Shown: positions 11,249 through 38,966 of the stretch, piece by piece
Layout: each line of letters begins with the position of its first letter
How positions within the stretch are numbered: position 1 is the stretch's first letter
Assembly: GCA_004321885.1 (NCBI GenBank)
Contig: SCQK01000005.1
Location: 1-38,966 of the forward strand
DNA from: Patescibacteria group bacterium
Lineage (GTDB): Bacteria; Patescibacteriota; Patescibacteriia; Magasanikbacterales; GWA2-37-8
Reading direction: 5' to 3'
Length of the DNA: 38,966 nucleotides
Notes under the pieces: generated by a model
What the model was told of the DNA's origin: nothing
Databases searched by the model: none
What the model saw: only the letters and a program-made list of their open reading frames with translations
Program-made: the position numbers and the translations under genes

Positions 11249-11263
11249 ACCCCACCCTTTATT

Positions 11264-15373: not shown

Positions 15374-15390
15374 TATTTTCTAACTAACTT

Positions 15391-15792: not shown

Positions 15793-15816
15793 AACCAGAG
15801 CAAATGTCGTTCAATT

Positions 15817-16344: not shown

Positions 16345-16348
16345 TTTT

Positions 16349-17554: not shown

Positions 17555-17619
17555 TGAAAAAATAAGATAGAACATATACGGTAGAAAGTTTTTCGGGAAT
17601 GTAGTATACTAAGGGCAAT

Positions 17620-19439: not shown

Positions 19440-19459
19440 GGGGGAGGGTGAGGGAGGGG
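19440..19459. repeat. half copy (G-rich arm only) of family-1 element
   Basis: gggggagggtgagggagggg without matching C-rich arm. Confidence 0.4.
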
Positions 19460-19462
19460 TAA

Positions 19463-20588: not shown

Positions 20589-20632
20589 TGTGAATTATTT
20601 GTGTCGTTTCGTGTTATAGGATTAGTGGTTCG

Positions 20633-21043
20633 TGGAGGTGGCGAGAGTTGAACTCGCGTCTAGAGAGCCATGATTATACCTTCTACATAATTAGTTCGGC
20701 TTGGTATTTTACCGAAGGGATAAAAGCGAACGAAAATCTCTTCGGCTAGCCGCTGAATTTTGGGTCTGTCGCCAGACCCCATTTTCTCAAAAGCGCGCGG
20801 CCTAACTTTTGAGTAAGCCCGGAAGTGGCACCGCTTTTAGCCGACGGGCGTAGCTAAGGCGATGGTCAAACGCAAATTAAGCGAATGACGGAGCCAAGGC
20901 GCGAACGCCAAACATGTTGGCGAACGCTACCTTAACTTTTGAGAATAAGTTGGCACTTATTGTGTTGCTTTGCTATTTGCGAGGCCAAAGCCGCCTCGTT
21001 ATGCCAATATAACCATCTGCTTCTATCGAAGCCCATCACCCCC
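20633..21043 (-). ncRNA. ssrA: tmRNA (SsrA), ~411 nt, not in ORF track
   Basis: minus-strand 5' end GGGGGUGAUGGGCUUCGAUAG matches tmRNA consensus GGGGxUGAxxGGxUUCGAC; 3' end GACGCGAGUUCAACUCUCGCCACCUCCA nearly identical to E. coli GACGCGGGUUCAACUCCCGCCAGCUCCA (T-arm + acceptor, G3:U70 pair); CCA not encoded; candidate tag ORF ANMFGVRALAPSFA-UAA (approx 20877-20921); immediately downstream of smpB. Confidence 0.85.
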
Positions 21044-21482
21044 GGCTTTTCAAGGTTCGTTGTATTTCTCTCTTCGCGTCGCGGCGCTTGATGACCTCTC
21101 TTTTATCGTATTGCTTGCGCCCGCGCGCCACTCCTATTTCCACCTTGACAAATCGGCCTTTAATATACACCCGCAAAGGCACTATTGTCAAGCCCTTTTC
21201 CATTGATTTGCCGCGCAAATAAGCGATTTCTTTCTTGCGTAAAAGCAAGCGGCGCGTGGCCGCGGGGTCGTATTCAAGCATTTTGCCGGCCGGTTTGTAC
21301 TTGGCGATATGCATGTTTATGATATCGGCATTGTCGCCATGGAAAGTAACATAAGCGCCTTTCAAATTTATCTGCCCGTTTTTGGCCGACTTGGTTTCCT
21401 GGCCCGACAACACTAAACCAGCCTCTAATTTTTCCAGAATTTCATAGTCAAATAGTGCTTTGCGATTTTCGGCGAGTTGCAT
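21036..21482 (-). CDS. smpB: SsrA-binding protein SmpB
   Basis: C-terminal 148 aa of ORF 21036..21941 (MQLAENRKALFDYEILEKLEAGLVLSGQETKS...HDPAATRRLLLRKKEI...GLTIVPLRVYIKGRFVKVEIGVARGRKQYDKRE) match SmpB; ATG at 21480-21482 preceded by TATAAT; upstream 153 aa of ORF are basic low-complexity and overlap a real membrane-protein gene on the other strand. Confidence 0.88.
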   Translation of the reverse strand: MQLAENRKALFDYEILEKLEAGLVLSGQETKSAKNGQINLKGAYVTFHGDNADIINMHIAKYKPAGKMLEYDPAATRRLLLRKKEIAYLRGKSMEKGLTIVPLRVYIKGRFVKVEIGVARGRKQYDKREVIKRRDAKREIQRTLKSRG

Positions 21483-21513
21483 ATCGCGCTCTATTATACT
21501 ATAATATCGGCGT

Positions 21514-22305
21514 ATGTTCAAACGGCTGTCTCTCCACCCCAAACTGGTGGCGGTTGTTGATACGCTCATTACCCTGGCCATGCTGTGGTGGCTGAATGGG
21601 ATGAGCTCAAAAATTGTTTTGGCGCTCTGGTTTGTTTTTCGTCTGGCCATCTGGGCCGGTTTTATAAAACTGATGTATTTTTCCGCCGGCGCCAGCCGCG
21701 CGCGCCATTTTTTGTCTTTATTGATTTTTTGCGCGGGCCTGCTGACATTTATTCTTTTTACCGAGTGGACGCCGGCGCGCCTGCTCTTTGAAGCAATTTT
21801 CGCGCTCTTTCCTTTTTTTGGTTTTTGGCTTTTGCCGGCCTCGGAGGCCGGCCTTCCCACTTTTTTGAAGCCCCATTCGCGCCTGTCGTTTATGATGTGC
21901 ATCATCGGTCTGGCCGGAATTTTCGCTTTGGTCTCCGCCATCTCATCGTTTCAACTGCTCACCAGCGTCAGCGCGTGGGTGTGGATTGTTTTAGCTTCGC
22001 TCGTCGCTACGGCCGTGGCTGGCTGGTGGTGGTTTGAGTACGGCCTGAAAGTGGACGACAAGTTTATTTCCCGTCTCGCCATTTGGTTTGTGATGTTTTT
22101 GGAATTTTTATGGGTGATTCTAATACTGCCGTTCGGATACATGGTAAATGGCCTGCTCACCATTTGGTGCTGGTATATTTTGTGGCTTTTGATGCGCTTT
22201 AACATGACCGAAGAGGGAATCAAGTGGCGCAAGCAGGCGCTGTTTCTGGTTTCAAACGTTGTTTTATTTGTGGGATATTTGCTGTTGGCGGTTAAGTGGA
22301 AATAA
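21514..22305 (+). CDS. hypothetical polytopic membrane protein (263 aa)
   Basis: multiple hydrophobic helices, W-rich; no family recognised. Confidence 0.5.
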   Translation: MFKRLSLHPKLVAVVDTLITLAMLWWLNGMSSKIVLALWFVFRLAIWAGFIKLMYFSAGASRARHFLSLLIFCAGLLTFILFTEWTPARLLFEAIFALFPFFGFWLLPASEAGLPTFLKPHSRLSFMMCIIGLAGIFALVSAISSFQLLTSVSAWVWIVLASLVATAVAGWWWFEYGLKVDDKFISRLAIWFVMFLEFLWVILILPFGYMVNGLLTIWCWYILWLLMRFNMTEEGIKWRKQALFLVSNVVLFVGYLLLAVKWK

Positions 22306-24044: not shown

Positions 24045-24083
24045 ATCATTCCCGCGAAGCCGCCAGCTGGCGGCCGGAATCCA
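24045..24083. repeat. family-2-related hairpin element (ATCATTCCCGCGAAGC...GGCCGGAATCCA)
   Basis: atcattcccgcgaagccgccagctggcggccggaatcca with inner palindrome gccgccagctggcggc. Confidence 0.55.
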
Positions 24084-25812: not shown

Positions 25813-26010
25813 ATGATAAAAAAAAAGGAAAATAATTTAAAAAAATTGTCCGCGCGCTACCAGCGGCTGTCTTCTTTGTATCAAAAATGGCAAAAGGAAT
25901 TGGCAGAAATAGAGCGTGAAGAACGCAAAATAAAGAAAAAAATCTTTGATTTAGCGGACCAAAAAAAGCGCGCTCAAGTTTTGAGTTTTATCAACAAGAC
26001 CGTACAATAA
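25813..26010 (+). CDS. small coiled-coil hypothetical protein (65 aa)
   Basis: K/E-rich heptad-like sequence; in operon context. Confidence 0.35.
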   Translation: MIKKKENNLKKLSARYQRLSSLYQKWQKELAEIEREERKIKKKIFDLADQKKRAQVLSFINKTVQ

Positions 26011-26024
26011 TTTTTCAATTTTTT

Positions 26025-29000
26025 ATGGTTAAGCCTGGTGATAAAAACGAAAAAGCGAAACCCGCCCCCAATAACGGCGAGGCAAATTTTACGGCGGAAA
26101 ATAAAATGATTAGAGCGCGAATTGAGCAGTTGTTTTCTGAATTGAGCGCTCTGGCGCAAGAGGTGCGCAAAAGACCGGGAATGCAGTCTGAACTTAATCA
26201 AATGCTTGAAACTCTTGCTAAACAGGAAACCAAAATCTCCTCATTGGATAAAGATAAGGTTGCTGAATTAGAAGAGGAATTGCAAAAATTGGAAGAGAGA
26301 ACACAGGAGTTAATTGATGAGATGAAAGAAGAAGAAAGGTTATACAGGGAAGAAGAAGCGCCGGACGCGGTGGATTATTCCAAGGAAGACAGCCAGGAGC
26401 GGCGACAGAGGCTGCTTAAATTTGGCAAAGACCTGAAAGAAATTGTTGATTTTTTTGAGCAGGGAGCTAACAATGACGCGGAAAAAATATTTTTGCAAAG
26501 CGCCATAGAATTATTGGAGGAAGGCAAAAAATTGGATATAACCGCCATGAACCATCCACTCGCAAAGCAATTGCCCGACGATTGGTTTGTGGATGTTGAC
26601 GCGTTCGTCAATAAAGCAAAACAACTGTATACAAAGTTTTCAACGTATAAGTTTGAATATGCTAAAAAGATAGTTCCAGGCGAGCCTAAGCCAAAAGAAC
26701 CGGTAAAACAGGAAGCGCCGACAAAGGAGAGCGAGACACCCGCTTCCACGGGGGCGGAAGCCGCGAAAGAAGTTCCGGCGTATTTGAAATTGGCCGCCGA
26801 GGTGGAGCGCATGGGGTTGGAATTAAAAGAGGCGCTTGATTCACCCAAAGCGCCGGCGGTGAAAAAGAACGCCATCAGGCTCGTTTTAGAAATGGCGAAT
26901 AAGCCCGGTAATGTTATTTCCAGGGTAAAGGACAATAATAAATGGGTTAAGGCGGCGCAAAATTGGTTAAGTTTGGCAAGAACGGCGCTGGAAGAACAGG
27001 CGCCGGCGGTACCCGCGCCGGCTGATGCCAAAGCCGCGTCAAATAATGAAAAAAATAAAGCAAAGAGCGACAGCTTGCTTTTCAACAAGTTGGTCCGGCA
27101 TCTACACGAAAAATTCAGTGATTTATTAAAATCAGATAAGGCTTTAATAAAGAGGCTTAAGGGACTGAAAAAACTTTTTGGCTACCCTGAATTTGACGGA
27201 GAGTTTGTTTCGCTCCTCAAAGACCTTGGCGTTAATCCGGATGATGTCAAAAAAATTGTTATAAAAGAATCCGACCGGAAGGATAAACGCGAAGAAAAGG
27301 AAAAAGGAAAGAAAAAAGATTACAAGTTTGAAATCAAAGGCGCGCGCCGGATTTTACGGGATGCCGTAAAACTGATTAATGACCCTGAAAAAGCCAAACC
27401 ATACAGAAAATTAATCGGGCAACTTGGCGAATTTAGTGAAATTTTTAACGCGCTTAGGAAAGATAAATTAACAGACCAAAAAAGGCAAGAATTGCAACAA
27501 AAAAGAAAAGATTTGCTTCATAAAAAACCCGATGGAATTTTCACGCAGGACGCGCAAAACAGCGATTTGCTGGAGAATGCGAAAAGAATAATCGCGTCCG
27601 CGGCCGGCGCCGTCCAACCCAAGCCCGGCAAATCGCCGAGCGCCGTGAAAACAACCGGCGCCGCTTCTACTCCGGCGCCCGCCAAGACACCCGATGCTCG
27701 GACAGTTGCAGCACCGTCTGCCCCGCGCGCGCCCTCACTAGCTCCGCGGGTGGATACGGGCTCGGCGTCGGCCGCGGCTGTGGACACGGCTCCGCCCGCG
27801 CCTCCGCCTCCGACGCCGCCCGACACTGCCCCACGCGAACCAGAACCAGAACCAGAACCAGAACCGCGCCCGGTTAAAAAAATTATTGACATCAAAGAAA
27901 CAGCGCTTTTGGAATTGATGAAACCGCACAAATTGCAGGAGGTTGTCAATCAGTTGATTCAGGGCAACGCGGCTGTCGCCGAAACCCTGTTTAGCAATAT
28001 CTTCGCGCGCGACGATGTTGATTTAGAAAGATTGCGCGAAGTGGTGGGACAGGACGGCTACACATCGGAAGAATTCAAAAATCTGTGGCTGGAACAGCTT
28101 CATAAACGCCCGTTTCGGATGATAAAAGACAATTTGGAACAGATGACGCGGAATTTTATCGCGCAAAACACCGGTAAAATAGAAAAAATTATACAAAAGT
28201 TGCCGGCGGCGAAAGCGATTATTCTGCAGGCATTGCCTTATCTGGCCATCGCCGGCGCCGGATTTTTTGCGGCCTTGACAGGCGGCGGCATTATCGGGCT
28301 TACCGCGGCCGGCGCGGCTTCGGGTCTTTGGCGCGGCATTTCCAAAAAAGTGGAAGGCGTGCGCGGCTGGATTTCCAAAAAAACCAAACAATTCAAGCAA
28401 AAAGGAGACGAAAGAGAGGCCTATAAAGAAAAAGAACAAAGAGAAGGCCTTTTGTTGATGCGGGATTTGATGGCGCAGTTTAATAATAATCAGGAATTGC
28501 TTTCCCAGTTGTCGTCAATGATCAGCCAGGGCTTGCGCGAGAGCAGCGCCCAAGAACGCGCCGAGTCTTTGGGCAAAGACAGAAACACAATTATCGCCAA
28601 CGCGGAACTGGCCATCGGGCAAATAAAAGAAAAATCCGAAGAAGAATACAGGCATGGTATTGGCAGAAAAGGCGAGGCAGACGCGCGCCTTGATAAAGAA
28701 AGCCAGGGCCGGCGCGCCGAGGCGCTTATCATGAAATTATACGAAAGCAACGAGATGGAAGATTTGATCCAGGAAGCCCTGCAAAAAGACCCGAAATTTA
28801 TCAGAGTACTAAAGGGAATAAACGCCTTGAAAAGTCTTGATTTGGATGAACTGGTTGAATCAGCCACGGGCAGGCGCGCTGATGTTGCCAAAAAAGAAAG
28901 CACCCTGAAAAAAGTCGCCTGCATCCTTGCTTCCGGAATTGCCGGCGGCGCCGTGGCCTATGGCCTGTCGGCGCATAATGCCTGGAGGCCGGTGGTAGCT

Positions 29001-31361
29001 GGTTTGGTCGGCGCTTATTTGGGCGCCAGATTTGGGCATCATCGGGAGATTAAGGCCCGCCAGCGTGAGTTCGCGGCCGAGTTTGAAAGAAATGTGGACG
29101 AGGCAGAGCAGGTTATCATAGAATACGAGGCCGTTACCGATTTAGCCGCGTGGCTGGGTGCTGATGGCGAAGAAAAAATTCGTCAATTGCAAAACAGGGC
29201 CAGAAAGTTGCGCACTCCTTTAACCTTGGGCATGCTGGACGATAATAAGCCTTTGAAATATCGGGCGCAAAACGCCTTGCGGCGCGTGGAAGCGATTTGG
29301 CTGACTATTTATTTGAATAATTCGGATATAGGTATAACAAGAAGAACATTTGACCCGGCTGTGGAAGGACCGGAAGGCGCCAGTGAAAGAGATGTGCACA
29401 CAGATAGCGCCGTGGAAAATTTGCTTACAGTCCTAGACAGGGAAGTGGAGATTCTTACCGAGGACCAAAAAGAGGTAAAGGAAACATTAACCAAAAAACC
29501 GGGCTGGTGGAAAACTTTTGCTTGGAGTCTTGCCGGCGCCGGGGGCGCGGGATTGCTGGCTTATGAAATACAGGGTTGGCGGGAGAGCGGCAAAAAATTG
29601 GACGAAGCCGGCTTTATGCCACAAGAGGAACCGCCGGCAAGCGGAGGCAGGGGAGACGCGGCTGGCGCGGCAGACACGGCCAGGGCCGCGAAAGGACAGA
29701 TAAAGCCGTTGCCCGGCGAGATTGAATTTCATCCGCCAACGGCCACTGAAAAGAGTCGGGTGTTTTTGGAAAATATGGGCGCCAAGCCAGGGGCTGGCAA
29801 TAAATTTACCATTGAACTTGGCAAAGGCGAGACGCCGGCAAACAAGTCGGAATTTTTCCGTTTGCTGGCTTTGAACGGAATGAAAGGTAAAGTGCTGGGT
29901 GATGACGGAGTTTTATCGCCTCTGGAACAAGGCAAGGTGTTGAATGTGGGCAGGAATATGCTGGAATTGGCTGGCGGGGCCAAAGCGCGCGGCGGTTTGC
30001 CGCTGGCGGATTTCAAAGAGCATTTCAGTATGAAAGGCAATAAAGTTACCATTACTGATTTTGATAAATTTCAGGAAAAAATAATCGGCAAATTGTCGGC
30101 GCACGCGGATGAAAAATTTACCAAGCAGACCATGGCCGACACGCGCGCCGGAAAAATGACCGCTATAAAATACGGGGCCCGCGCCAACTGGGAAAAAGAT
30201 TTTGCTAAAATTGGTTATGAGGCCAACGCGCCCCGCGAGCATTTTGTTGTGCCCGAAGACGTGAAAGATATAAAAGATGAAGTAGTTGACCCGGACGCTG
30301 GCAAAGCGCCGGCAGACGCGCCCGAAGCTCAGGCCGCCACCAAACCTGAACAGGTTTTTGAAGTGGACAGGAATGTATTTGGAGTGGAAAAACACCTGGA
30401 ACTCACAAACAGCGAGACAAAAATCGTTGACGCTGCCATTCGCAAAATGGATTGGATAGCGAATAAAACCCATCTATCCGGCGATGGGCTGGAGAATTGG
30501 AGCAAGGCCTTTGGAACGATGGATGACGCCATGGACCGCCTGCAAACAAATCTTCACGACCCGGATTCTTTGGCAAAGTTAAAATATATTGGTTCATTAT
30601 CAGCCGCGGAACTAAGCAAAACACCCGACACAAAATTTGCCGCCATAATAGACAATATTAAAGGCGGGTCAAAAGGAGGCGGGGGAGGGGCTGATGAAAT
30701 TGTCCAAAAAGGCGGCAAGGCCAAGGTGGCGGCGGTTGAGGCGGCAGAACCAAAAGCGTCTGAGTGGATCGCGGGCCATAAAGCGGCCGAATACCAAGAA
30801 TTTGTTGATCGTGTTAAAGGCGGTAGGGATTTGTTTGTGAAAAGAATGATAAAAACATCCGGAATTAGTGAAGGTAAACTTGATGAACTCTTGCAAAAAT
30901 TTGCGCGCGGGCATAAGGGAATAAATTTGACTAACGCTGAAACTGAAGAAAAGTTTCGGACTTGGCTGGCCATGGAATTGGAAGAGTCAGGAACCGCGTC
31001 AGCGGCAGTAACGGAAAAATTATCCACAGCCAACCCCGTGGCCATAGGCGAAGCCAAGGGTGGGCAAAAGTTGGTACAATTTTTGGACAACAAAGGCAAA
31101 ACGCGCTCCTTGGAAATAGCTGAAAAATTTGAACCCAAGAAAGGAGAAAAAGGAATTGTTTCGCTCGTCATGGACATTACGGACAAAAACGGCACGTATC
31201 AAGCGCGTCAAGACGGAAAATTTGAAATGAGAATGATAGGACACAAAAAAATGCCGGTGTTTGTTATTAGTAAAATGGAGGGTGAGGGAAGCGCGGCAAA
31301 GGATGTAGAGCATATTTACGCTATAAAAAATAATGGTCGTGAGATAGTATTGCAGAAGTGA
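26025..31361 (+). CDS. giant hypothetical protein (1778 aa): N-terminal coiled coil, Pro-rich linker, three central hydrophobic segments, ~800-aa C-terminal region
   Basis: single uninterrupted ORF with consistent codon usage; hydrophobic segments LPYLAIAGAGFFAALTGGGIIGLTAAGAASGLW, VACILASGIAGGAVAYGLSAHNAWRPVVAGLVGAYLGARFG, WWKTFAWSLAGAGGAGLLAYEI; PEPEPEPEP linker. Confidence 0.7.
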   Translation: MVKPGDKNEKAKPAPNNGEANFTAENKMIRARIEQLFSELSALAQEVRKRPGMQSELNQMLETLAKQETKISSLDKDKVAELEEELQKLEERTQELIDEMKEEERLYREEEAPDAVDYSKEDSQERRQRLLKFGKDLKEIVDFFEQGANNDAEKIFLQSAIELLEEGKKLDITAMNHPLAKQLPDDWFVDVDAFVNKAKQLYTKFSTYKFEYAKKIVPGEPKPKEPVKQEAPTKESETPASTGAEAAKEVPAYLKLAAEVERMGLELKEALDSPKAPAVKKNAIRLVLEMANKPGNVISRVKDNNKWVKAAQNWLSLARTALEEQAPAVPAPADAKAASNNEKNKAKSDSLLFNKLVRHLHEKFSDLLKSDKALIKRLKGLKKLFGYPEFDGEFVSLLKDLGVNPDDVKKIVIKESDRKDKREEKEKGKKKDYKFEIKGARRILRDAVKLINDPEKAKPYRKLIGQLGEFSEIFNALRKDKLTDQKRQELQQKRKDLLHKKPDGIFTQDAQNSDLLENAKRIIASAAGAVQPKPGKSPSAVKTTGAASTPAPAKTPDARTVAAPSAPRAPSLAPRVDTGSASAAAVDTAPPAPPPPTPPDTAPREPEPEPEPEPRPVKKIIDIKETALLELMKPHKLQEVVNQLIQGNAAVAETLFSNIFARDDVDLERLREVVGQDGYTSEEFKNLWLEQLHKRPFRMIKDNLEQMTRNFIAQNTGKIEKIIQKLPAAKAIILQALPYLAIAGAGFFAALTGGGIIGLTAAGAASGLWRGISKKVEGVRGWISKKTKQFKQKGDEREAYKEKEQREGLLLMRDLMAQFNNNQELLSQLSSMISQGLRESSAQERAESLGKDRNTIIANAELAIGQIKEKSEEEYRHGIGRKGEADARLDKESQGRRAEALIMKLYESNEMEDLIQEALQKDPKFIRVLKGINALKSLDLDELVESATGRRADVAKKESTLKKVACILASGIAGGAVAYGLSAHNAWRPVVAGLVGAYLGARFGHHREIKARQREFAAEFERNVDEAEQVIIEYEAVTDLAAWLGADGEEKIRQLQNRARKLRTPLTLGMLDDNKPLKYRAQNALRRVEAIWLTIYLNNSDIGITRRTFDPAVEGPEGASERDVHTDSAVENLLTVLDREVEILTEDQKEVKETLTKKPGWWKTFAWSLAGAGGAGLLAYEIQGWRESGKKLDEAGFMPQEEPPASGGRGDAAGAADTARAAKGQIKPLPGEIEFHPPTATEKSRVFLENMGAKPGAGNKFTIELGKGETPANKSEFFRLLALNGMKGKVLGDDGVLSPLEQGKVLNVGRNMLELAGGAKARGGLPLADFKEHFSMKGNKVTITDFDKFQEKIIGKLSAHADEKFTKQTMADTRAGKMTAIKYGARANWEKDFAKIGYEANAPREHFVVPEDVKDIKDEVVDPDAGKAPADAPEAQAATKPEQVFEVDRNVFGVEKHLELTNSETKIVDAAIRKMDWIANKTHLSGDGLENWSKAFGTMDDAMDRLQTNLHDPDSLAKLKYIGSLSAAELSKTPDTKFAAIIDNIKGGSKGGGGGADEIVQKGGKAKVAAVEAAEPKASEWIAGHKAAEYQEFVDRVKGGRDLFVKRMIKTSGISEGKLDELLQKFARGHKGINLTNAETEEKFRTWLAMELEESGTASAAVTEKLSTANPVAIGEAKGGQKLVQFLDNKGKTRSLEIAEKFEPKKGEKGIVSLVMDITDKNGTYQARQDGKFEMRMIGHKKMPVFVISKMEGEGSAAKDVEHIYAIKNNGREIVLQK

Positions 31362-31411
31362 GTTTATTCAAAAACAGCCCTGAGTTTTTTTGCTGTTTTT
31401 GCGCCCTCCTC

Positions 31412-31439
31412 TTGACAGTCGCATTATTTATGGTATCTT
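31412..31439 (+). promoter_or_regulatory. candidate promoter (TTGACA-16-TATCTT) at low-GC/high-GC boundary
   Basis: cttgacagtcgcattatttatggtatcttt; followed by hairpin cccaaaacagg-tgtttttggg. Confidence 0.35.
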
Positions 31440-31600
31440 TACCTGTTCCCAAAACAGGTGTTTTTGGGTATAAATAATATAGTCTTTGAAAATTAAAGTA
31501 GGTTTGGCGCTTGGCGCCACAACAGGGCAACGATAAGGACGTGCCCTAACAGCGAGCCACGACAAGGACGAGCTCGCAAACGGAGAGAATGGAGAGAGAG

Positions 31601-33487
31601 ATGAGCGATGAGAGAAACGAGGGAAGGAGCCCCCTCTGGAACGGCTCCCGGGACGAGGGCCCGCAGCGACCCCACACACCAACGCTTGATGGTCTGGTAG
31701 CTGTGGTCGACCAGCCGGAGGAGCAGCCCGCACTGCTTCATTGCCCGTGCGGGTGGCAGGTGTACTCGCGGGCTACGGCGAAGATAGCCATGGTCAGCAA
31801 CTCGTGTCCGCTGACCGGAGACGAGCTGGCCCTGACGGTGGAGGATGTTGCGAAGCTCGCGGACGAACTTCGCGATGTCCACGCCTTCCCCATCCGCACC
31901 TTCTTTCAGAAGGTGCAGTTCCCGGTGACGGTCGTCTGCGACTGCGGCGACTCGGAGCTGGAATTGGTGGAGAGCGGGGTGGAGGAGGAGTGTGTGAAGT
32001 GCCGCCGGCACTATGTCATTACCGCGGACGCGGAGATGTACATGGTGATTGACAAGAAATTGGCGCGGCCGGACACGCTCCGCACCGGCCAGCCCGTGGC
32101 GCCCACGGCTTCGGGTGAGGTGGACTCGCGTCCGACCATCGCGCCGGCCGGGCCCGACGAGGAAACGCGGGTCGGAGAGCCTGTCCCGCTGGTGGAGACG
32201 TCGGACGTCCCGGACGACGCCCAGACCAGCGAGCGCGTTTCGCCTCCGCCGGAGGAGTCTGGTCATCAGATGGTCCAGGCGCCGGACGCCGACCCCTCGG
32301 ACTTCGAGGGCAAGAGCCCGACGGCTCCTGGCGTAATACCCGAAGAGGAGCTGGTGGCTCTGGAGCTGATGGCTTCGTTGGCAGCGGCCGCCAGCGGTCC
32401 GGCCCAGGGCCCGGCTTTTGACCAGTCGGGTATGGCCGTGTTGGACGTGAACTGCCCGGAGTGCAGAAGGGTCTTCACGGTCAATCGCGAGCTGGGTGCG
32501 GCGATGTGTCCGCACTGCAGGGCCGTGTTTGAGGTTTTGGTAGCGGGCGGCCGGGTTGAGTTTGTCCGGTGCGTGGTGCCGGGCAACAAACTGCCTCCGC
32601 CCACCCCGCTCGACGCGGGCGGCAGAACCCAGCAGGGCTTTGTCTCGCCCGTGCCGCCGAGGCAGGACCCGCCGACGTTGGATCAGCCCCTCGCCCAGCT
32701 CGATGTTCTTCGGGACAAGAGCCGCGAGAGGTCACAGCCCGGCGAGTCCGAGGCGTCTGCGTTGCCAGCACCCGCGGAGGCGATTCCGCTCTCCGCCATC
32801 GCGGCGCCGACCGGCGTCGGACCGAGCTTCAAGCTGGTGGACGTCTCCCGGGCGCGTTTGCGCGCGAGCGTCAGTCTCGGCCCGAAGGACCGACAGTCAA
32901 CGGGCGAGATTCGCCCAGCGGCGCGTCGCCTGCCTCGCTGGGTCCATGGCGCGTTCGGCGTGCTCGGGCTCGGATTCTGTGTGCTCTTGGGGATAGTGCT
33001 GAATCAGGGCGCTCTCCTCAAGGAGAACACGCGGCGGAGCCAGGCGGCCGAGCAGAAGAGTGCCGCGGCCGAGGAGCAGAGCAAGGCCGCGGCGAAGGAT
33101 AGTGCCGAGGCTGTGCTCAAGAGCGCGCGGGCCGAAGTTGAGGCCAAGACCGCCAGAAAAACGGCGGACAAGGCCAATACCCGATTGGACACGCAGGAGG
33201 CGGCGCGCGAGAAGCTGGACAAGGAGCTCGCCGCCAGCGCACGGTCTGTCGCCGCCTTCCAGAAGGCGACGAATACGGCCATTGGGAACATCAAGGGCCA
33301 GGTCGCTAGACAGAGTGCTGATCTGCGTCAGACAATCGCAAGGGCGCAGGCAACGCTTGACCAAATCAAGCGCGACCTGGCTTCGGCGAACGCGGCGCCC
33401 GCCAAGCGCGTCCCGCCATCGTTCCTACCCGCCAAGGTTCCCAAGATGCGCCCCCCGGATCACCTGATACGGCGTCGCAACGACTAA
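31601..33487 (+). CDS. zinc-ribbon (MJ0042-like) / single-TM / C-terminal coiled-coil protein, GC-rich
   Basis: three CxxC...CxxC pairs (HCPCGW..SCPLTG; CDCGDS..CVKCRRH; NCPECRRVF..CPHCRAVFEV); TM VHGAFGVLGLGFCVLLGIVL; A/K/Q-rich coiled coil; GGAGAGAG SD before ATG 31601. Confidence 0.55.
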   Translation: MSDERNEGRSPLWNGSRDEGPQRPHTPTLDGLVAVVDQPEEQPALLHCPCGWQVYSRATAKIAMVSNSCPLTGDELALTVEDVAKLADELRDVHAFPIRTFFQKVQFPVTVVCDCGDSELELVESGVEEECVKCRRHYVITADAEMYMVIDKKLARPDTLRTGQPVAPTASGEVDSRPTIAPAGPDEETRVGEPVPLVETSDVPDDAQTSERVSPPPEESGHQMVQAPDADPSDFEGKSPTAPGVIPEEELVALELMASLAAAASGPAQGPAFDQSGMAVLDVNCPECRRVFTVNRELGAAMCPHCRAVFEVLVAGGRVEFVRCVVPGNKLPPPTPLDAGGRTQQGFVSPVPPRQDPPTLDQPLAQLDVLRDKSRERSQPGESEASALPAPAEAIPLSAIAAPTGVGPSFKLVDVSRARLRASVSLGPKDRQSTGEIRPAARRLPRWVHGAFGVLGLGFCVLLGIVLNQGALLKENTRRSQAAEQKSAAAEEQSKAAAKDSAEAVLKSARAEVEAKTARKTADKANTRLDTQEAAREKLDKELAASARSVAAFQKATNTAIGNIKGQVARQSADLRQTIARAQATLDQIKRDLASANAAPAKRVPPSFLPAKVPKMRPPDHLIRRRND

Positions 33488-33572
33488 CCGAGCGCTCTTT
33501 CCGCGGCGTGTGTGAGTATGTAAGCAGAGGTGAATGAAAATTCCTTCCGCTTCCCTCCCACTCCACACGCCA

Positions 33573-33620
33573 ATCCCCCTATGATTCCAAATTTTGGAAT
33601 TATAGGGGGATTTTTGTTTT
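33573..33620 (+). terminator. long palindrome + T-run (atccccctatgattccaaa-tt-ttggaattatagggggat TTTTGTTTT)
   Basis: near-perfect 19-bp inverted repeat followed by U-run, downstream of zinc-ribbon gene. Confidence 0.55.
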
Positions 33621-33631
33621 ATTCAAATTTT

Positions 33632-33652
33632 CCTCCCCTATTAGGGGAGGGG
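33632..33652. repeat. family-1 palindromic element in GC-rich segment (cctcccctattaggggagggg)
   Basis: identical core to copy at 1507. Confidence 0.8.
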
Positions 33653-33711
33653 CAAGGGGTGGAGTTTTACCTTTATCTTAGCCAAAATTCGTTCTCTTAT
33701 CGAAAAATCTC

Positions 33712-33740
33712 TTGACAGAAATACCGAACTGTGCTATTCT
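33712..33740 (+). promoter_or_regulatory. sigma70-like promoter (TTGACA-17-TATTCT)
   Basis: cttgacagaaataccgaactgtgctattct upstream of ORF 33787/33892. Confidence 0.45.
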
Positions 33741-33891
33741 TAACAGTTAAAATCAAATTAGTTTCAATGCGCGAGAGAGGCATTGTATGAGGATTTCACT
33801 CATCAAGCCACTCCCGCGTCCACGGGTTTTTTTCTTTACAATCGTCTCTGACATTAGTAATGCCGGAGCACAACAAGAAAGGAGGCCAGGA

Positions 33892-34515
33892 ATGGCCGAT
33901 GAACCGAAAGTCATCGTCGAGGTAGACAAGGAGTGTCTTTTTTGCAAGCGGGACATCCCCCAGCTCCAGGAGGAGCTGGCGGGTGTGAAGAAGTTGCAAG
34001 AGGCGCAGGAGGACGCGGTCGGTGGCAGTTTGCGCCGACTGCGTATGGGTATGACGGCCTTCGCGGTCGCGTTGGCGTTGATTGTCGTCATCAGTCTTGT
34101 TGTGGTTTACATCCGCCTGACCGAGACGACGGGCCAGCGCGCCGCTCCGGTTCCCAGCCGGCTGGTCCAGCGCTTGTCCCAGACAGAACAGCGTCTGGGC
34201 AAGCTGGAGGGGACCATCGGGCTTTTGAAAAGCGCGATGGAGAGGCTTGCGGAGCAGTTCGGAAAGGTGCTCTCCGACATCACCAAGATGCCGAAGGCAT
34301 CACAACCGCCTGCCTCCCAGCCGGTGGTCACTGCGCCGCCGCTCCGGACAACGCCGCTTGTCAAGACGGCCAAGCCGAGTGAAAGAGAGGGCCTGTTGCC
34401 CTGCAAGCAGGAGAAGGAGTCCTGCGTAAAGGGGAATGAAGGTCGCGTCGGCAAGGAGAGGGCCCTGCAGTTTTGCGCCACTTTCTTCAGACAGGGAGGG
34501 CCGAACTGCAAGTGA
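33892..34515 (+). CDS. hypothetical TM + coiled-coil protein, GC-rich (start could be 33787)
   Basis: AGGAGG 6 nt upstream of ATG 33892; TM AFAVALALIVVISLVVVYI; coiled-coil segment. Confidence 0.45.
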   Translation: MADEPKVIVEVDKECLFCKRDIPQLQEELAGVKKLQEAQEDAVGGSLRRLRMGMTAFAVALALIVVISLVVVYIRLTETTGQRAAPVPSRLVQRLSQTEQRLGKLEGTIGLLKSAMERLAEQFGKVLSDITKMPKASQPPASQPVVTAPPLRTTPLVKTAKPSEREGLLPCKQEKESCVKGNEGRVGKERALQFCATFFRQGGPNCK

Positions 34516-34598
34516 GTAGGGTCTCCTCACCGCCACGCCGCATTCCAGCCGCCGAGACCCATCCAACCCAATGTATATGACTGTTATTTCGGTACGCT

Positions 34599-34630
34599 AT
34601 GTCATTCCTGCCATAAGAGCAGGAATTTAT
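34599..34630. repeat. family-2 hairpin element in GC-rich segment
   Basis: tgtcattcctgccataagagcaggaattta; upstream flank cccaatgtatatgactgtt shared with copy at 35575. Confidence 0.7.
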
Positions 34631-34873
34631 CACCGGAATTCACGGTCGTATACAGTGAATTTGGAAGGAACATTACAATAAGCGAAATGAGCGAGTAAAT
34701 AATTTTGCTTGCAAAATTATTTCGAGCGAATGAGCTTTATATCATTGATATATTCTGGTTCGCAAAAAGGACAGGTGTCATTGCGAGCGAAGCAATCCCG
34801 TCTTATTTGCGACCCAGAATTTCAACCCGGTTTCCGCCTGCTGGACGCAGGCAAAAATGAAAGGAGGCACATT

Positions 34874-35470
34874 ATGTGCCGTCTGATCGGAGAGCTCGAC
34901 GGCGAGCTGTTCGCCGTCGAGCTGAACAAGCTCGGCGCTGTCCCCCCCTCCCCCAACCAGCCCCCGGCGGCCCCGCCCCGGCCCGGCGGCGGCGCCCAGC
35001 CGCCCGTTGGCGCGGGCGCGCCCCCCGCGGGCGCGTGCAGGGCCACGCCCTGCCGGTTCTCGTCGTGGCTGATCATTGCCGCGGTGGGGCTGGCAGCGGT
35101 GGCGATCATCATCACGATGATCGCCCTGCGCGACGGCAAGTCGGCGCAGGTCGCGCCCGCGGTCGCCCCGACCAAGTCGGTGCCGGCTACTCCGGCTGCC
35201 GCGGCCGCGACGCCCGCCAAGCCGGCACTCCCCCCCAATCAGATTGGCGCCCTGCCGGTCTACGGGGGCGGCGTGCACCTCCCCAGCATCACGCTGGAGG
35301 TCGCTCGCCCGCCGGTTGCGCCCGCGCCGGTCCTACCGCCCTTGGCCCCGCCGCCCGCGCCGAGCGCGGCGTTCCCGTCCTGTGACCAGGACGCGGAGTG
35401 CCTCGCGCTTGTCGCCGCCCACGGCGCCGGCGCCCGCCCCCGCTGCCCGCAGTTCTTCAACTGCCGGTAG
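34874..35470 (+). CDS. Pro/Ala-rich single-TM hypothetical protein
   Basis: AAAGGAGG SD 6 nt upstream of ATG 34874; TM WLIIAAVGLAAVAIIITMIAL; PA-rich low complexity. Confidence 0.45.
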   Translation: MCRLIGELDGELFAVELNKLGAVPPSPNQPPAAPPRPGGGAQPPVGAGAPPAGACRATPCRFSSWLIIAAVGLAAVAIIITMIALRDGKSAQVAPAVAPTKSVPATPAAAAATPAKPALPPNQIGALPVYGGGVHLPSITLEVARPPVAPAPVLPPLAPPPAPSAAFPSCDQDAECLALVAAHGAGARPRCPQFFNCR

Positions 35471-35574
35471 CGTGCGTCACCCCGCCGGGCCTTGTGGCTC
35501 GGCCCCTCCTTTCAACCCAGGGTCGGACATTCGCCTCGCGACTGTCCGACCCTTCCATCCCAATGTTTACGATT

Positions 35575-35603
35575 GTCATTCCTGCCCACGAGCAGGAATC
35601 CAC
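35575..35603. repeat. family-2 hairpin element (tgtcattcctgcccacgagcaggaatcca)
   Basis: same arms as 4621 copy. Confidence 0.7.
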
Positions 35604-35671
35604 AATGGCAAACATTGATAGTGGAGTACATTACAACACTCACGGTGTGAAGTTATCTGCCCCTCCTCACT

Positions 35672-35696
35672 CCTCCCCCTTTATAAGGGGGGGAGG
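35672..35696. repeat. family-1 palindromic element (cctccccctttataagggggggagg)
   Basis: inverted repeat in GC-rich segment. Confidence 0.8.
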
Positions 35697-35941
35697 CGGG
35701 GAGGGGGTATAGCTCCACCCCGTGAGAATTATCACGGTTTGATATAGCAACCAGGCCGATTTCTTCAAACGCAAAATCCCCACCCATGTGGGACCGCGAA
35801 CCGCTGTATATACCCCTTTGGACCAAAAGTCCGAAAACGGGAAACAGCGCAAGCGGATAAGAAGAAAACGGCTTAGCAAGTTCATGAAGTATAGGCCGGC
35901 CCTGCACGCGCGAGCGGAGGGTCAAAAAAAGGAGAAGAACG

Positions 35942-36793
35942 ATGTTGAAGATGGTTGCGGCGATGATCGCCGCGCTGTACATCCTCGCGGTGAGTGCCAC
36001 CTCGGCGCTCGCCCAGAACACCCCCCCCGCGGCGGTCGCTCCGGCCGCGAAGTCATCGGCGATGCAAATCGCCGACCTCACCCTGAAGTTCGAGAAGGCC
36101 GAGAGCGACATCGCGTCGCTGAAGGCCAAGCTCGCGGCGCCGGCCCCGACCGCGCCAGACGGCAAGGCATTGTGCCAGTTCTGGGCACCGTGCAAGAACG
36201 CCGTCGCCGACGAGGCGGGGAAGATCCAAACGGTGATCAAGACCATCAAGGTCAAGATTGCCGACCCATCTCTCCTCGCCAAGCTCCGCCTGGCGGAGCT
36301 CGAGCTCGCGAAGCTCACCGAGCGGCTCGGCGCCCAGGCCGGGCTGGCCCAGCACAACGCGGAGGCCGCGAAGGGCCAGCTCGCGCTGGCTGGTCAGGTT
36401 CTGGCCATGGGTCAGCACCCGGAGCTCGCGAAGTACGCGCGGTGTCGGGGCGGCTTCAAGCTCAGGACCACGGTCTACACGCCGACGAGTTCAACCCTTT
36501 CGCTCGACTGTGAGCGAGAGGTTGACCTCGCGCGGGTGGAGAAGGTGGAGGGCCCGCTCGCCGCTGCCCAGGCGGCCGCGGCCGCTCGCCAGCCCCTCGC
36601 GCCCCCACCCGCGCCGGAGAAAAAGTCCGGCCGGTGCGGAACCGGTTGTATCATCGCGGCCATCACGATCCCGGCTGCGATCGTCGGTGCCGTGGTCGTC
36701 GGTGCTCTGCTCGCCACCCGTGAGGACCACAACACGGTGGTGACACCGACGAAGACGACCTCCGCGCTGAGCATCCGGTTCAAGGGGCTGTAG
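35942..36793 (+). CDS. secreted coiled-coil protein with signal peptide and C-terminal TM anchor
   Basis: AAGGAG SD before start; signal peptide MLKMVAAMIAALYILAVSATSALAQ; C-terminal TM CIIAAITIPAAIVGAVVVGALLA. Confidence 0.5.
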   Translation: MLKMVAAMIAALYILAVSATSALAQNTPPAAVAPAAKSSAMQIADLTLKFEKAESDIASLKAKLAAPAPTAPDGKALCQFWAPCKNAVADEAGKIQTVIKTIKVKIADPSLLAKLRLAELELAKLTERLGAQAGLAQHNAEAAKGQLALAGQVLAMGQHPELAKYARCRGGFKLRTTVYTPTSSTLSLDCEREVDLARVEKVEGPLAAAQAAAAARQPLAPPPAPEKKSGRCGTGCIIAAITIPAAIVGAVVVGALLATREDHNTVVTPTKTTSALSIRFKGL

Positions 36794-36980
36794 GCTGTAG
36801 ATAGTACACACGCGTCTCTGAGACATTGCGCGTGCACTCCCAATGATCTGTACAACCGATCCCAATCGGGCGTACAGTTACGGGAGGGTCTCGCCATTGC
36901 GCACGCGCAATGGCTCCCAATTATTTTCCTATGCTACGCATGGGGAAATTGAGGGAATAGATCATTACAACAACAAACTG

Positions 36981-37000
36981 CCTCCGCCGATAAGGGGAGG
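36981..37000. repeat. degenerate family-1 element (cctccgccgataaggggagg)
   Basis: partial inverted repeat upstream of lipoprotein gene. Confidence 0.4.
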
Positions 37001-37032
37001 CGCAACAGTTGTTAGAAAGAGAGGAGGTCGCC

Positions 37033-37890
37033 ATGACCAAGGCGACGACGAAGAGAAGTGGAACGGCCACGGCGTTCGTGGCAACCCTCGCGATGGGGAT
37101 CATCATCGCCCTTGGTGGTTGCGCCACCAAGGAGAACGTGACCGTGGAGTACCCGGGGTCCACCACGACGGTGACCCCGCCCACGGCGACGCCCGAGCCC
37201 GGTCGGCTCGGAGGTCCGTGCCTGAACGGCGCCTGCCTGGACAAGGAGGCGGTCTGCGACTCCGGATTCTGCCGGTTCCGCACCGGCCCCGGGTCGTCCA
37301 ATACCTGTGGCAACGGCGCTTGCCAGGCGGACCTCGGCGAGACGTACACCACCTGCCCCCAGGACTGCGGCAAGGCCCCTGGCTGTCCCAGCGGTCAGTG
37401 CGACCCTGGCGAGTCCAGCGCGACGTGCCCCCAGGACTGCCCGGCTAACACGGCCAGCTGGTCAGTTCAGCTGGAGATTCGCTCCAGTGCCGCTGGCTTG
37501 ACCCATTGCCACACGTACACGGCGGGGGCGGTGCCGGCACTGTACGACAGCCACCAGGGACAGACGCCGCTCAAGTTCTCGCTGTCCTTCAGCGAGGCGT
37601 GCGTCAAGAAGTTGCCCGGGTCCTGGGTCGGCAACTCCAACGGCCTGTACGCCGTGGAGATCAAGTGCGCACAGTCGCCGGAGGGGCCCAAGACGTGGTA
37701 CGATGAGCCGGGCATGCCGACCATGGCCGGGACCATCTCGGTCTCGATCAACAACGGCTCATTCCTCGCTGTTGTGCCGTCGGGCGGCGACTTCAACACC
37801 GCACCGGTAATGGAGGTGCCGGGCTCGCACCCGGTGGCGAACAGGGCGGGCAACGCCGTCGTCAGCGCGACGCTGATGAAGTGCCCGTAA
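37033..37890 (+). CDS. Cys-rich lipoprotein (lipobox LGGC), with CxNGxC..GE..TCPQDC repeats
   Basis: GAGGAGG SD then ATG 37033; MTKATTKRSGTATAFVATLAMGIIIALGGC signal/lipobox; repeats CGNGACQADLGETYTTCPQDCG and CPSGQCDPGESSATCPQDCP resembling myxococcal-type Cys-rich repeats. Confidence 0.6.
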   Translation: MTKATTKRSGTATAFVATLAMGIIIALGGCATKENVTVEYPGSTTTVTPPTATPEPGRLGGPCLNGACLDKEAVCDSGFCRFRTGPGSSNTCGNGACQADLGETYTTCPQDCGKAPGCPSGQCDPGESSATCPQDCPANTASWSVQLEIRSSAAGLTHCHTYTAGAVPALYDSHQGQTPLKFSLSFSEACVKKLPGSWVGNSNGLYAVEIKCAQSPEGPKTWYDEPGMPTMAGTISVSINNGSFLAVVPSGGDFNTAPVMEVPGSHPVANRAGNAVVSATLMKCP

Positions 37891-38148
37891 GGAGAACACA
37901 ACCGCGCTATACGCGGGACCGCAGCGATGCGGAACCACAATCACCAGCGCGTAAAGGATAGAATTGGCCGAGCGGAGATTAACCACATTTTTCGCTCGGC
38001 CGCTGTACTTACCGCATAATATTTTTGTGCGGTGGGTATGGGGGAAAAATTCATATGACGCATTTAACCATCTCTCTCCCGCCAATTTATTTGGCGGAGT
38101 GACTAAATGCTTCAGTTGAATGCCTTGTACTGAAAAGTAAAAGGCAGG

Positions 38149-38175
38149 AACCACCCCAACAGGTGGTTTTCTTTG
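38149..38175 (+). terminator. hairpin + U-run (aaccacc-ccaaca-ggtggtt TTCTTT)
   Basis: 7-bp stem followed by T-rich tract ~75 nt upstream of second lipoprotein gene; may be terminator/attenuator. Confidence 0.35.
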
Positions 38176-38249
38176 AAAAATGAAACAAACGCCTCAACCG
38201 CATGGGCGGAGAGGTGCAACCGATTGTAGAAAAAGAGAGGAGGTCGCCA

Positions 38250-38966
38250 GTGAACAAAACGGCGACGAAGAAGAGAAATGGAACGGCCGCGGTGTTCGCG
38301 GCAACCCTTGTGGTTGTAGGGTTCATCACGACCATCAACCTGTCCGGGTGTGGTAACACGACGACTGTCGTGGCCGCCAACTCAGACAGTGCGCAAAGCA
38401 ACGGCACCGAGGGTGCCACGTGCACCTACGACGGCAAGAAACCGTGCGCCACAGGATTCCTCTGCGACGCATGGAAGAAGTGCGTCCGCATCCCGATCGG
38501 CACTACCCCCACCTACGACGCCGGCATCCCGCCGACCCCGAAGCACGACACGGGCGCGCCCAAGTTCGATTCCGGCGTGAATACGGACACCGGGAAACCC
38601 GTCGGCAGCGAGGGCACTCCTTGCTACTTCGGGAGCTGTCTGACCGGCCTGACCTGCCTGTCCAACGTCTGCGTGAAGATGCAGACGAGCGACAGCGGAG
38701 TGAAGCCGGATAGTGGCAAGAACCCCGGCACCGAGGGGGCGGTGTGCATCAAGCCAGGCGATCTCTGCTTCCCCGGGCTGAACTGTCTGTCCAACGTCTG
38801 TGTGAAGATGCAGACGACGGACAGCGGCCCCAAGCCCGAGGCCGGCAAGATCCCCGGCACCGAGGGTGGCCTGTGCGTTCAGCCAGGCAACCTCTGTCTC
38901 ACGGGGCTGTCATGCCTCTCGGGATTCTGCGTCAAGCTCCCGCCCACCACCGACAGCGGGGTGAAG
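38250..38966 (+). CDS. Cys-rich lipoprotein paralog (lipobox LSGC) with ~38-aa tandem repeats; partial, continues beyond window
   Basis: own translation from GTG 38250 (open to window end, hence absent from closed-ORF track): VNKTATKKRNGTAAVFAATLVVVGFITTINLSGC...; 5' UTR agaaaaagagaggaggtcgcca nearly identical to that of gene at 37033; repeated modules DSGxKPxSGKxPGTEGxxCxxPGxLCxxGLxCLSxxCVK(M/L). Confidence 0.55.
   Translation, partial: MNKTATKKRNGTAAVFAATLVVVGFITTINLSGCGNTTTVVAANSDSAQSNGTEGATCTYDGKKPCATGFLCDAWKKCVRIPIGTTPTYDAGIPPTPKHDTGAPKFDSGVNTDTGKPVGSEGTPCYFGSCLTGLTCLSNVCVKMQTSDSGVKPDSGKNPGTEGAVCIKPGDLCFPGLNCLSNVCVKMQTTDSGPKPEAGKIPGTEGGLCVQPGNLCLTGLSCLSGFCVKLPPTTDSGVK

Follow-up and report, generated by a model that had tools for sequence, protein, structure and literature searches.

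Six GC-rich genes for predicted envelope proteins form a compositional island, plausibly of foreign origin, in a Patescibacteria contig

Results

The DNA analysed here (the window) is one whole NCBI contig of 38,966 bases (SCQK01000005.1; locus tags EPN28_..., proteins TAN33847-TAN33852) from a metagenome-assembled 'Patescibacteria group bacterium', a member of the Candidate Phyla Radiation (CPR). From about 31.4 kb to the contig end the window carries a real and well-delimited compositional island with six genes on the plus strand, here called ISL1 to ISL6. We lean towards regarding this segment as an ordinary horizontally acquired (xenologous) genomic island with no identifiable donor.

Composition, codon usage and oligonucleotide signature

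A maximum-likelihood search for a single change point places the switch in GC content, a rise from 0.503 to 0.626, at position 31505 (log-likelihood ratio 185), while the best change point within 1-31400 has a log-likelihood ratio of only 15. The reference for all comparisons of composition is the host part of the contig, i.e. about 31 kb of upstream sequence with 20 open reading frames (ORFs). Host windows of 7.5 kb have GC contents of 0.491-0.526 compared to 0.624 in the island. Gene by gene, GC content is 0.47-0.57 in the 20 host ORFs and 0.61-0.77 in the six island ORFs, and the GC content of third codon positions (GC3) is 0.51-0.71 and 0.77-0.92, respectively, with no overlap (exact Mann-Whitney p = 8.7e-6). 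This agrees well with an initial annotation of the sequence, which had described an abrupt rise of GC and GC3 after the gene of a giant protein and ORFs on all six frames. ORFs of at least 80 amino acids (aa) are indeed found in every frame of the island. The six plus-strand ORFs are the longest in the frame of highest GC3 and match the NCBI gene calls EPN28_01255 to EPN28_01280; the remaining ones are Arg-rich or antisense, as expected for shadow ORFs in GC-rich DNA.

The difference in codon usage between host and island lies almost wholly in the two-fold degenerate codons. Four-fold GC3 is alike (0.65-0.87 in the host, 0.77-0.91 in the island) and the ranking of the four-fold codons is nearly the same. 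Two-fold GC3 is bimodal without intermediates, with 0.26-0.63 in host genes versus 0.81-0.97 in island genes. The ratio of AAA to AAG is thus 0.72/0.28 in the host and 0.09/0.91 in the island, and the fractions of GAA (0.66 versus 0.09), TTT (0.70 versus 0.16) and TAT (0.56 versus 0.06) behave likewise. The encoded proteins are shifted in the direction from FYMINK (Phe, Tyr, Met, Ile, Asn, Lys) to GARP (Gly, Ala, Arg, Pro) residues: FYMINK residues decrease from 0.23-0.33 in the host to 0.12-0.21 in the island, each of them being depleted, and Ala, Pro, Thr and Cys are enriched. About half of the GC excess is synonymous and about half stems from amino acid composition, as host genes have a GC content of 0.516, the island amino acids with host codons would give 0.598, and the observed value is 0.674.

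The dinucleotide signature deviates as well. After normalisation for GC content, the dinucleotide distance (delta*, x1000) between island and host genes is 266, with single island genes at 229-316, compared to 49 on average and at most 100 for equal-sized subsets of host genes and 50-184 for single host genes. Hence the segment has the deviant GC content, codon usage and base-composition-normalised oligonucleotide signature of a genomic island. The host sequence shows a signature of its own. Like-with-like dinucleotides are in excess (AA/TT 1.60, GC 1.41, CG 1.26; AG/CT 0.72, AC/GT 0.69), a bias that is absent from the island, and codon usage of the host genes (757-31361) is split into GC-rich four-fold and AT-rich two-fold sites. 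Such a combination is unusual as the mutational signature of a genome with about 50% GC.

Translation initiation signals

All six island genes are preceded by a strong Shine-Dalgarno (SD) sequence of their own, as initially annotated, located 5-9 nucleotides (nt) before the start codon and reading GGAGAGAG, AAAGGAGG (twice), AAAGGAGA or GAGAGGAGG (twice). The mean SD duplex energy is -10.8 kcal/mol in the island versus -3.4 kcal/mol for the 20 host genes (p = 0.0014), and this contrast persists if any alternative start within the first 60 codons is allowed. Most host genes have no SD, and strong values in the host come only from GGGGAGGGG of the family-1 hairpin repeat (see below) before three starts and from one operon-internal gene. 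The host genes at 13271 and 17620, dnaB and the giant-protein gene lack an SD and have a -10 box (TATACT, TAGAAT, TACAAT) ending 6-16 nt before the ATG (regions 13235-13271, 17582-17620, 13171-13213 on the minus strand and 25981-26025). This spacing indicates that several host genes are probably leaderless or nearly so, and the sequence suggests that leaderless or very-short-leader mRNAs predominate in this CPR genome. Taken together, the shifts in synonymous usage, amino acids, GC-normalised signature and initiation signals point to a long evolution of the six genes elsewhere, followed by transfer.

The GGGGAGGGG arm of family-1 repeats precedes the starts at 1541, at 9289 and of recR (1492-1540, 9246-9288 and about 11249-11280, respectively), and the repeat may double as terminator and ribosome-binding site.

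Spacers, transcription signals and hairpin repeats

The segment is not the uniform GC-rich block that had been described at first but a series of six GC-rich ORF modules. The GC excess is confined to the ORFs, each module reaching at most about 100 nt past its ORF on either side, while the six island spacers have 44-55% GC with cores of 33-44%, as compared to 31-52% in host spacers. The left boundary spacer (31362-31600, plus strand) contains an AT-rich hairpin with a T-run after the giant-protein gene (about 31370-31400), a near-consensus promoter-like site with an extended -10 element (31412-31439, plus strand, TTGACA-N16-TGgTATCTT) and then the GC change point, which falls inside the predicted 5' untranslated region (UTR) of ISL1 of about 155 nt. 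ISL1 is followed by an intrinsic-terminator-like hairpin with a 19-bp stem and a T-run (33572-33612, plus strand), and a second promoter-like site with extended -10 (33712-33740, plus strand, TTGACA-N17-TGcTATTCT) lies about 145 nt upstream of ISL2. The predicted 5' UTRs of ISL1 and ISL2 are thus both about 150 nt long, and the presence of promoters and a terminator in the spacers suggests individual transcription of at least these two genes.

Two families of hairpin repeats had been reported from the intergenic spacers of the segment, and we located two copies of each. Family 1 occurs at 33627-33666 (hairpin 33632-33650, CCTCCCCTATTAGGGGAGGGG plus a third arm) and as a full four-arm element at 35657-35705 (hairpin 35672-35693), the complete order being TACCCCTCCC, xx, CCCTCCCC, TTATAA, GGGGAGGG, xx, AGGGAGGGGTAA. 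Family 2 occurs at 34604-34626 (ATTCCTGC..GCAGGAAT) and at 35578-35599, the latter in the same spacer stretch as the four-arm element (35578-35705). The host part contains further copies of family 1 (1955-1994, 9246-9286, 10815-10855, 19441-19462) and family 2 (4625-4644, 10231-10255, 24048-24080), and hairpin repeats sit there both between and within housekeeping genes. Family 2 has the form ATTCC(T/C)GC...GC(A/G)GGAAT, usually with GTC ahead, which recalls the Neisseria dRS3 repeats (ATTCCC-N8-GGGAAT).

An exact copy of the right half of family 1 together with the same hairpin arm is found at more than 116 loci in GTDB genomes, mostly of Nostocales and with several loci per genome; other bearers are Marinomonas, Thiohalophilus, Bacteroidales, Anaerolineae, Eisenbacteria, Gracilibacteria and Saccharibacteria. 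The island was initially thought to have been colonised later by resident repeats. Their presence is confirmed, but because family 1 is identical across many phyla, 'resident' repeats are weaker evidence for such a colonisation than had been assumed. Neither the long 5' UTRs nor the repeats, family 1 included, matched a known RNA of Rfam at E <= 1. An element type common to so many phyla merits a separate study.

Assembly of the junction

Identical sequences are present in the Logan assembly of run SRR8426592. A Logan contig of 5825 nt (L002) equals window positions 27837-33661 with 100% identity and leads without a break from the interior of the giant-protein gene across the junction to the end of ISL1, and the junction sequence is non-repetitive and unique within the window. 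Two additional Logan contigs (L120, 33633-35054, and L001, 35025-38876) tile the remaining island exactly with overlaps of 29-30 nt, so that the breaks fall at 33633-33661, i.e. in a family-1 repeat copy, and at 35025-35054. A mis-join is therefore unlikely, in line with the earlier view that the contig is probably not a chimeric assembly, with the caveat that the NCBI and Logan assemblies were built from the same reads and would share a read-level chimera.

The arms of a 24-nt inverted repeat (35021-35044 and 35898-35921, 88% complementary) enclose the 3' part of ISL3 together with the spacer behind it. The Logan graph breaks exactly at the left arm of this repeat and not at its right arm; the break could stem from strain variation, from low coverage where GC is about 80%, or from a k-mer that is also present in another organism. 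An inversion switch at this pair was considered and rejected, as L001 passes the right arm unbroken.

Island proteins

Each of the six products carries a signal peptide, a lipobox or a single transmembrane (TM) helix according to motif and topology prediction. An envelope role is therefore likely, and the earlier term 'cell-envelope module' seems fair. The N-terminal part of ISL1 (31601-33487, plus strand, 628 aa) comprises about 447 residues, is predicted to be cytoplasmic, is rich in Pro and acidic residues and was modelled with low confidence. It is followed by a TM helix (448-466), from which a single long α-helix extends to about residue 598 (AlphaFold2 (AF2) pLDDT 84-96), and by a basic Pro-rich tail; the TM helix and the long helix are the only parts modelled with confidence. 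The N-terminal part harbours one canonical CxxC-x14-CxxC motif (285-306), a CxC-x15-CxxC motif (113-134) and an incomplete CxC...C cluster (48-69). A crude single-register heptad test of the long helix was negative, so that a coiled coil is not established for ISL1. Thus, while the single TM helix of the initial annotation holds, its three CxxC..CxxC zinc ribbons reduce to one canonical and two atypical clusters, and its coiled coil is not supported. A likeness to MJ0042 could not be upheld either, with a TIGR02098 score of 10.1 bits against a cut-off of 20.9 (E = 0.49). ISL1 does resemble bitopic membrane proteins with MJ0042- or FmdB-type zinc ribbons in that its CPEC-x14-CPHC motif is followed by β-strands and lies on the cytoplasmic side of a single TM helix, but it scores below every model threshold and its other two Cys clusters are atypical. 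Its best matches, all of them weak, are zinc ribbons (HypA, IBR, S27 and a five-ribbon caspase-like protein). Zinc-binding anti-sigma factors differ from ISL1, which has no HxxxCxxC motif and no sigma factor gene nearby.

ISL2 (33892-34515, plus strand, 207 aa, SD AAAGGAGG; the NCBI start is 33787) consists of an N-terminal CxxC, a TM helix (56-74), a helix comprising residues 80-135, a Pro-rich linker and four C-terminal Cys residues. The predicted extracytoplasmic helix 80-135 is heptad-periodic, with 0 of 1000 shuffles reaching the observed score, which supports the original description as a TM and coiled-coil protein. ISL3 (34874-35470, plus strand, 198 aa), with a GC content of 0.77 and a GC3 of 0.92, is a Pro/Ala-rich single-pass protein (TM 67-85), again as described before, and also ends in four Cys residues. 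The similar four-Cys tails raised the possibility that ISL2 and ISL3 are paralogues, which was rejected (BLASTP E = 1.8). ISL4 (35942-36793, plus strand, 283 aa) is predicted to have a Sec-type signal peptide (1-24) and, towards its C-terminus, a TM anchor (236-254), consistent with the secreted and anchored protein proposed earlier; it also contains an Ala/Leu/Lys-rich helical region and three Cys pairs.

ISL5 (37033-37890, plus strand, 285 aa) and ISL6 (38250-38966, plus strand, at least 239 aa, cut by the contig end) are putative lipoproteins, judged by a motif check for a charged n-region, an h-region and a lipobox [LVI][ASTVIG][GAS]C within about 35 residues. ISL5 has KATTKR.., an h-region and the lipobox LGGC with Cys30, and ISL6 has KTATKKR.. 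and the lipobox LSGC with Cys34. Two CGNGxC/CPSGQC..GE..CPQDC units (92-136) are found in ISL5 together with more Cys pairs, and its C-terminal domain of about 145 aa is unlike any known protein; the AF2 model of ISL5 is uninformative (pLDDT 40). ISL6 is built of at least four four-Cys units of about 43 aa with the pattern GTEGxxC..C..GLxCLSxxCVK, the last of which form a 129-nt tandem repeat (38636-38909). Both had been annotated as lipoproteins at first, which the motifs support, but the CGNGxC..CPQDC repeats ascribed to both are confined to ISL5.

The two genes had also been called paralogous, yet their likeness is limited to the ribosome-binding site and signal peptide. A leader cassette of about 91-97 nt (37002-37092 in ISL5 and 38216-38312 in ISL6, both plus strand), which comprises the SD and the start codon plus some 20 codons, is identical at 79 of 91 positions (87%), while identity is 48-52% in the flanks and the mature parts cannot be aligned. 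The substitutions within the cassette are mostly non-synonymous, so its sharp edge points to recombination or gene conversion and not to purifying selection. This arrangement resembles the vlp/vsp/vsa variable lipoproteins of Mycoplasma, where adjacent genes share a cassette of 5' UTR, ribosome-binding site and signal peptide; as there, the mature parts are unrelated and one of them is built of tandem repeats. It differs in that only two members are visible and that the organism belongs to the CPR. A conserved leader cassette with a divergent, repeat-built mature region, as in a phase-variable lipoprotein family, is thus present in two members. As to a switch, we found no simple sequence repeat or homopolymer longer than A7 upstream and no recombinase gene in the window, and the inverted repeat at 35021-35044 and 35898-35921 flanks no promoter of the lipoprotein genes, nor was an invertible promoter found.

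Homology and donor searches

The six island proteins were compared with Pfam, NCBIfam, PHROGs and PADLOC, and no match attained its threshold; PHROGs yielded no significant match beyond a zinc-ribbon one and PADLOC none. The large protein-database searches covered ISL1, ISL5 and the giant protein. Among 5.8 billion protein clusters ISL1 and ISL5 matched themselves but no homologue, ISL5 showing in addition only short Cys-repeat matches with 17-27% coverage. With ISL1 residues 1-445 as query, a full HMMER search of 1.84 billion representatives returned only a generic zinc-ribbon match, and sequence searches of the PDB found nothing. Viral contigs (IMG/VR; ISL1, ISL4, ISL5 and ISL6) and metagenome contigs (ISL4 and ISL6) contained no relatives, in scans that detect close relatives only.

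The Cys repeats had been described as reminiscent of myxobacterial Cys-rich repeats. Against the corresponding TIGR02232/DUF4215 repeat, however, ISL5 has no NCBIfam match at E <= 1 and ISL6 matches only an unrelated lipoprotein model (E = 0.035), and Pfam at E <= 0.1 yields only RET_CRD, below its threshold. Residues 92-136 of ISL5 are instead 40-58% identical to CGxGxC..CPxDC repeats of Patescibacteria, of a deltaproteobacterial metagenome-assembled genome and of unnamed metagenome proteins (P0002-P0006). Proteins with this repeat include two from other Patescibacteria, and in one of these genomes the composition of the gene equals that of its housekeeping neighbours. The repeat is therefore no marker of a myxobacterial origin. 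ISL5 shares with these proteins the four-Cys repeat CGxGxC-x(3-5)-E-x(3-4)-CPxDC, although only 17-27% of ISL5 is covered, the TIGR02232/DUF4215 models remain unmatched, the repeat is not specific for Myxococcota and the unit of ISL6 is different.

Discussion

Our data are best accommodated by a scenario in which the six genes would have evolved for a long time in a GC-rich, SD-dependent lineage before they moved into the CPR chromosome, to their present location downstream of the native giant-protein gene. A short GC-rich 5' UTR with its own SD would have been retained by each gene, while the host-like spacers would contribute the resident hairpin repeats together with transcription signals, namely sigma-70/extended -10 promoters and one or more intrinsic terminators. 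Individual transcription from such host-type signals, giving leadered mRNAs, may thus apply at least to ISL1 and ISL2 and probably to further genes. Among the predicted envelope products, two would be bitopic proteins in which a cytoplasmic head with Cys pairs (zinc-ribbon-like) is joined to an extracytoplasmic helical stalk, a third would be bitopic and rich in Pro and Ala, a fourth would be secreted and anchored at its C-terminus, and the last two would be Cys-rich lipoproteins. The products are presumably exposed on the cell surface and may contribute to surface architecture or attachment; adhesion or surface variation as the role of the island is conjecture.

Genomic islands are frequent in Patescibacteria and, together with other horizontal gene transfer, account for up to 13% of genome length (PMC12455944). 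Like the islands described there (IslandViewer-type predictions), the segment deviates in GC content, codon usage and oligonucleotide signature within a streamlined genome and encodes unannotated proteins; it differs in that it shows neither a mobility gene nor a tRNA target nor flanking repeats, that the deviation is confined to ORFs and that its SD use is unlike that of the neighbouring genes.

Several observations weigh against a foreign origin. The spacers lie 20-30 GC points below the island ORFs, and in delta* they are nearer to host spacers (113) than to island genes (184). Such host-like, AT-rich spacers are not predicted by a simple block transfer from a high-GC donor, which would leave unexplained why promoter-bearing host-like spacers stand beside unameliorated synonymous sites. 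Gene-by-gene capture, spacer replacement and a donor with AT-rich spacers are conceivable routes to this pattern. The searched island proteins yielded neither a donor nor a homologue, and no close relative of the host region was found; since the native giant protein is an orphan too, a lack of homologues does not separate foreign from native genes. No integrase, transposase, tRNA target or flanking direct repeat is found in the window, and the right boundary of the island lies beyond the contig end. Mobility and phage genes typical of genomic islands are likewise absent among the six products (Pfam, NCBIfam, PHROGs) of an island that is cut by the contig end, and the only RNA gene in the window is that of the transfer-messenger RNA (tmRNA, 20632-21043), 10 kb away. 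Finally, the comparison is limited to 31 kb of host DNA, and similar genes may be frequent elsewhere in the genome, and both assemblies derive from the same reads. Thus, of the initial proposal of a horizontally acquired module, possibly from a high-GC host or neighbour, the foreign composition (GC and GC3, two-fold codons, dinucleotides, SD) stands, while a simple block transfer does not agree with the host-like spacers.

Alternatively, the six genes could be native and represent a lineage-specific class, e.g. of abundant surface proteins, whose bias is kept by selection or by local mutation or recombination. The host-like spacers, promoters and repeats would fit this explanation, and so would the four-fold codon preferences, which are nearly equal to those of host genes. 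The giant envelope protein and several other host ORFs also lack homologues or Pfam matches, and CGNGxC..CPxDC proteins are native to other Patescibacteria, with ordinary composition. Nevertheless, we consider a native origin rather unlikely. Two-fold GC3 is bimodal, with the plausibly well-expressed IF3, ClpB, SmpB and DnaB genes at 0.40-0.49; translational selection strong enough for a value of 0.96 would not be expected in slow-growing CPR bacteria. Moreover, amino acid usage has moved in the GARP/FYMINK direction and the dinucleotide signature remains far away after GC normalisation.

Unlikely, in our view, is also that the genes are cargo of a mobile element with its own composition, be it a degraded prophage, an integrated plasmid or integrative and conjugative element, or a cassette array, with genes perhaps captured singly between hairpin repeats. 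The modular layout, in which GC-rich modules are bounded by AT-rich spacers with palindromic repeats, would be in agreement with this, as would the recombination suggested by the leader cassette shared by ISL5 and ISL6 and a VirD4-like coupling protein and SLT lytic transglycosylase encoded 12-15 kb upstream. Islands are generally known to be rich in novel genes, an enrichment that Hsiao et al. reportedly described in 2005. However, no integrase, transposase, relaxase or phage hallmark was found with Pfam, NCBIfam, PHROGs and PADLOC, and IMG/VR contigs hold no relatives of the four proteins tested. The modules share no boundary motif beyond the generic repeats, and these also occur between and inside housekeeping genes. 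An integron-type cassette array in particular is not indicated, with no integrase and no attC-like boundary motif, and with only the genome-wide family-1 and family-2 hairpins recurring.

It is quite doubtful that the island serves an episymbiotic CPR bacterium as a locus for surface variation, in which foreign envelope genes were captured singly behind host-type promoters, lipoproteins swap mature domains behind the shared leader of about 91-97 nt and more members follow past the contig end. If so, it would provide a variable Cys-rich surface for host-cell attachment or for the evasion of host cells or phages. Finally, a chimera of a CPR contig with DNA of a high-GC organism, arisen in assembly or binning, would account for the abrupt change in composition, the position of the island at the contig end and the Logan breaks at 33633-33661 and 35025-35054, but is very improbable given the unbroken 5825-nt Logan contig (27837-33661, 100% identity) across a non-repetitive junction, the exact tiling of the NCBI contig by Logan pieces with 29-30-nt overlaps, and the host-type spacers and family-2 hairpins that recur throughout the island.

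Hardly any surface proteins have been characterised in CPR bacteria, which live attached to other cells. If import of the six genes is true, the island provides a clean case of gene import into a streamlined genome, as mutational signature, amino acid usage and initiation mode all differ between the imported and the resident genes. It would then follow that SD-led foreign genes can be expressed beside native genes that are mostly SD-less or leaderless. The restriction of foreign composition to ORFs and the lipoprotein leader cassette would be informative on the domestication of imported genes. Orphan-rich compositional islands are a well-known type of feature, and our conclusion is drawn from one 39-kb contig; the interesting details beyond the earlier description are the ORF-confined foreign composition, the contrast between SD-led and leaderless genes, and the shared leader cassette.

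Other features of the contig

The host part (1-31.4 kb) encodes housekeeping functions, comprising a beta-CASP RNase, RsmH, ClpB, an MraY-like transferase, RecR, DnaB, a NUDIX protein, IF3 and SmpB with the adjacent tmRNA, and in addition an SLT transglycosylase, a VirD4-like ATPase and the giant protein of 1778 aa without homologues. A 700-aa orphan, the SLT lytic transglycosylase, the VirD4/TraG-like coupling ATPase and the 1778-aa orphan are encoded upstream of the island amid housekeeping genes (13271-19395 and 26025-31361). The giant protein contains several hydrophobic segments, and a large protein-database search returned only the protein itself; several other host ORFs are likewise without homologues or Pfam matches. 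These four proteins may be part of a type-IV-secretion-like or DNA-uptake apparatus.

At the opposite contig end, ORF 95-577 (plus strand) encodes a Cys-rich protein with a match to the plant Stig1 domain (PF04885, E = 9e-13) and no obvious signal peptide. Its two-fold GC3 of 0.63 is the highest among the host genes. A relationship to ISL6 was considered and rejected (BLASTP E = 0.069).

The tmRNA gene (20632-21043, minus strand) lies directly downstream of smpB (21036-21941, minus strand) and overlaps its end by 8 nt. ARAGORN predicts a long and unusual tag peptide, ANLFSKVKVAFANMFGVRALAPSFA, and SmpB itself has an N-terminal extension of about 155 aa ahead of the Pfam domain (residues 157-298 of 301).

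Two family-1 copies reside inside ORFs, one at 1955-2026 within ORF 1541-2965 (beta-CASP/metallo-beta-lactamase) and one at 10815-10854 within recR (10601-11248). At these sites the Pfam alignments of both the beta-CASP protein and the RecR Toprim domain exceed the length of their profiles, which suggests that the copies are in-frame insertions. Rickettsia palindromic elements are a known example of such insertions.

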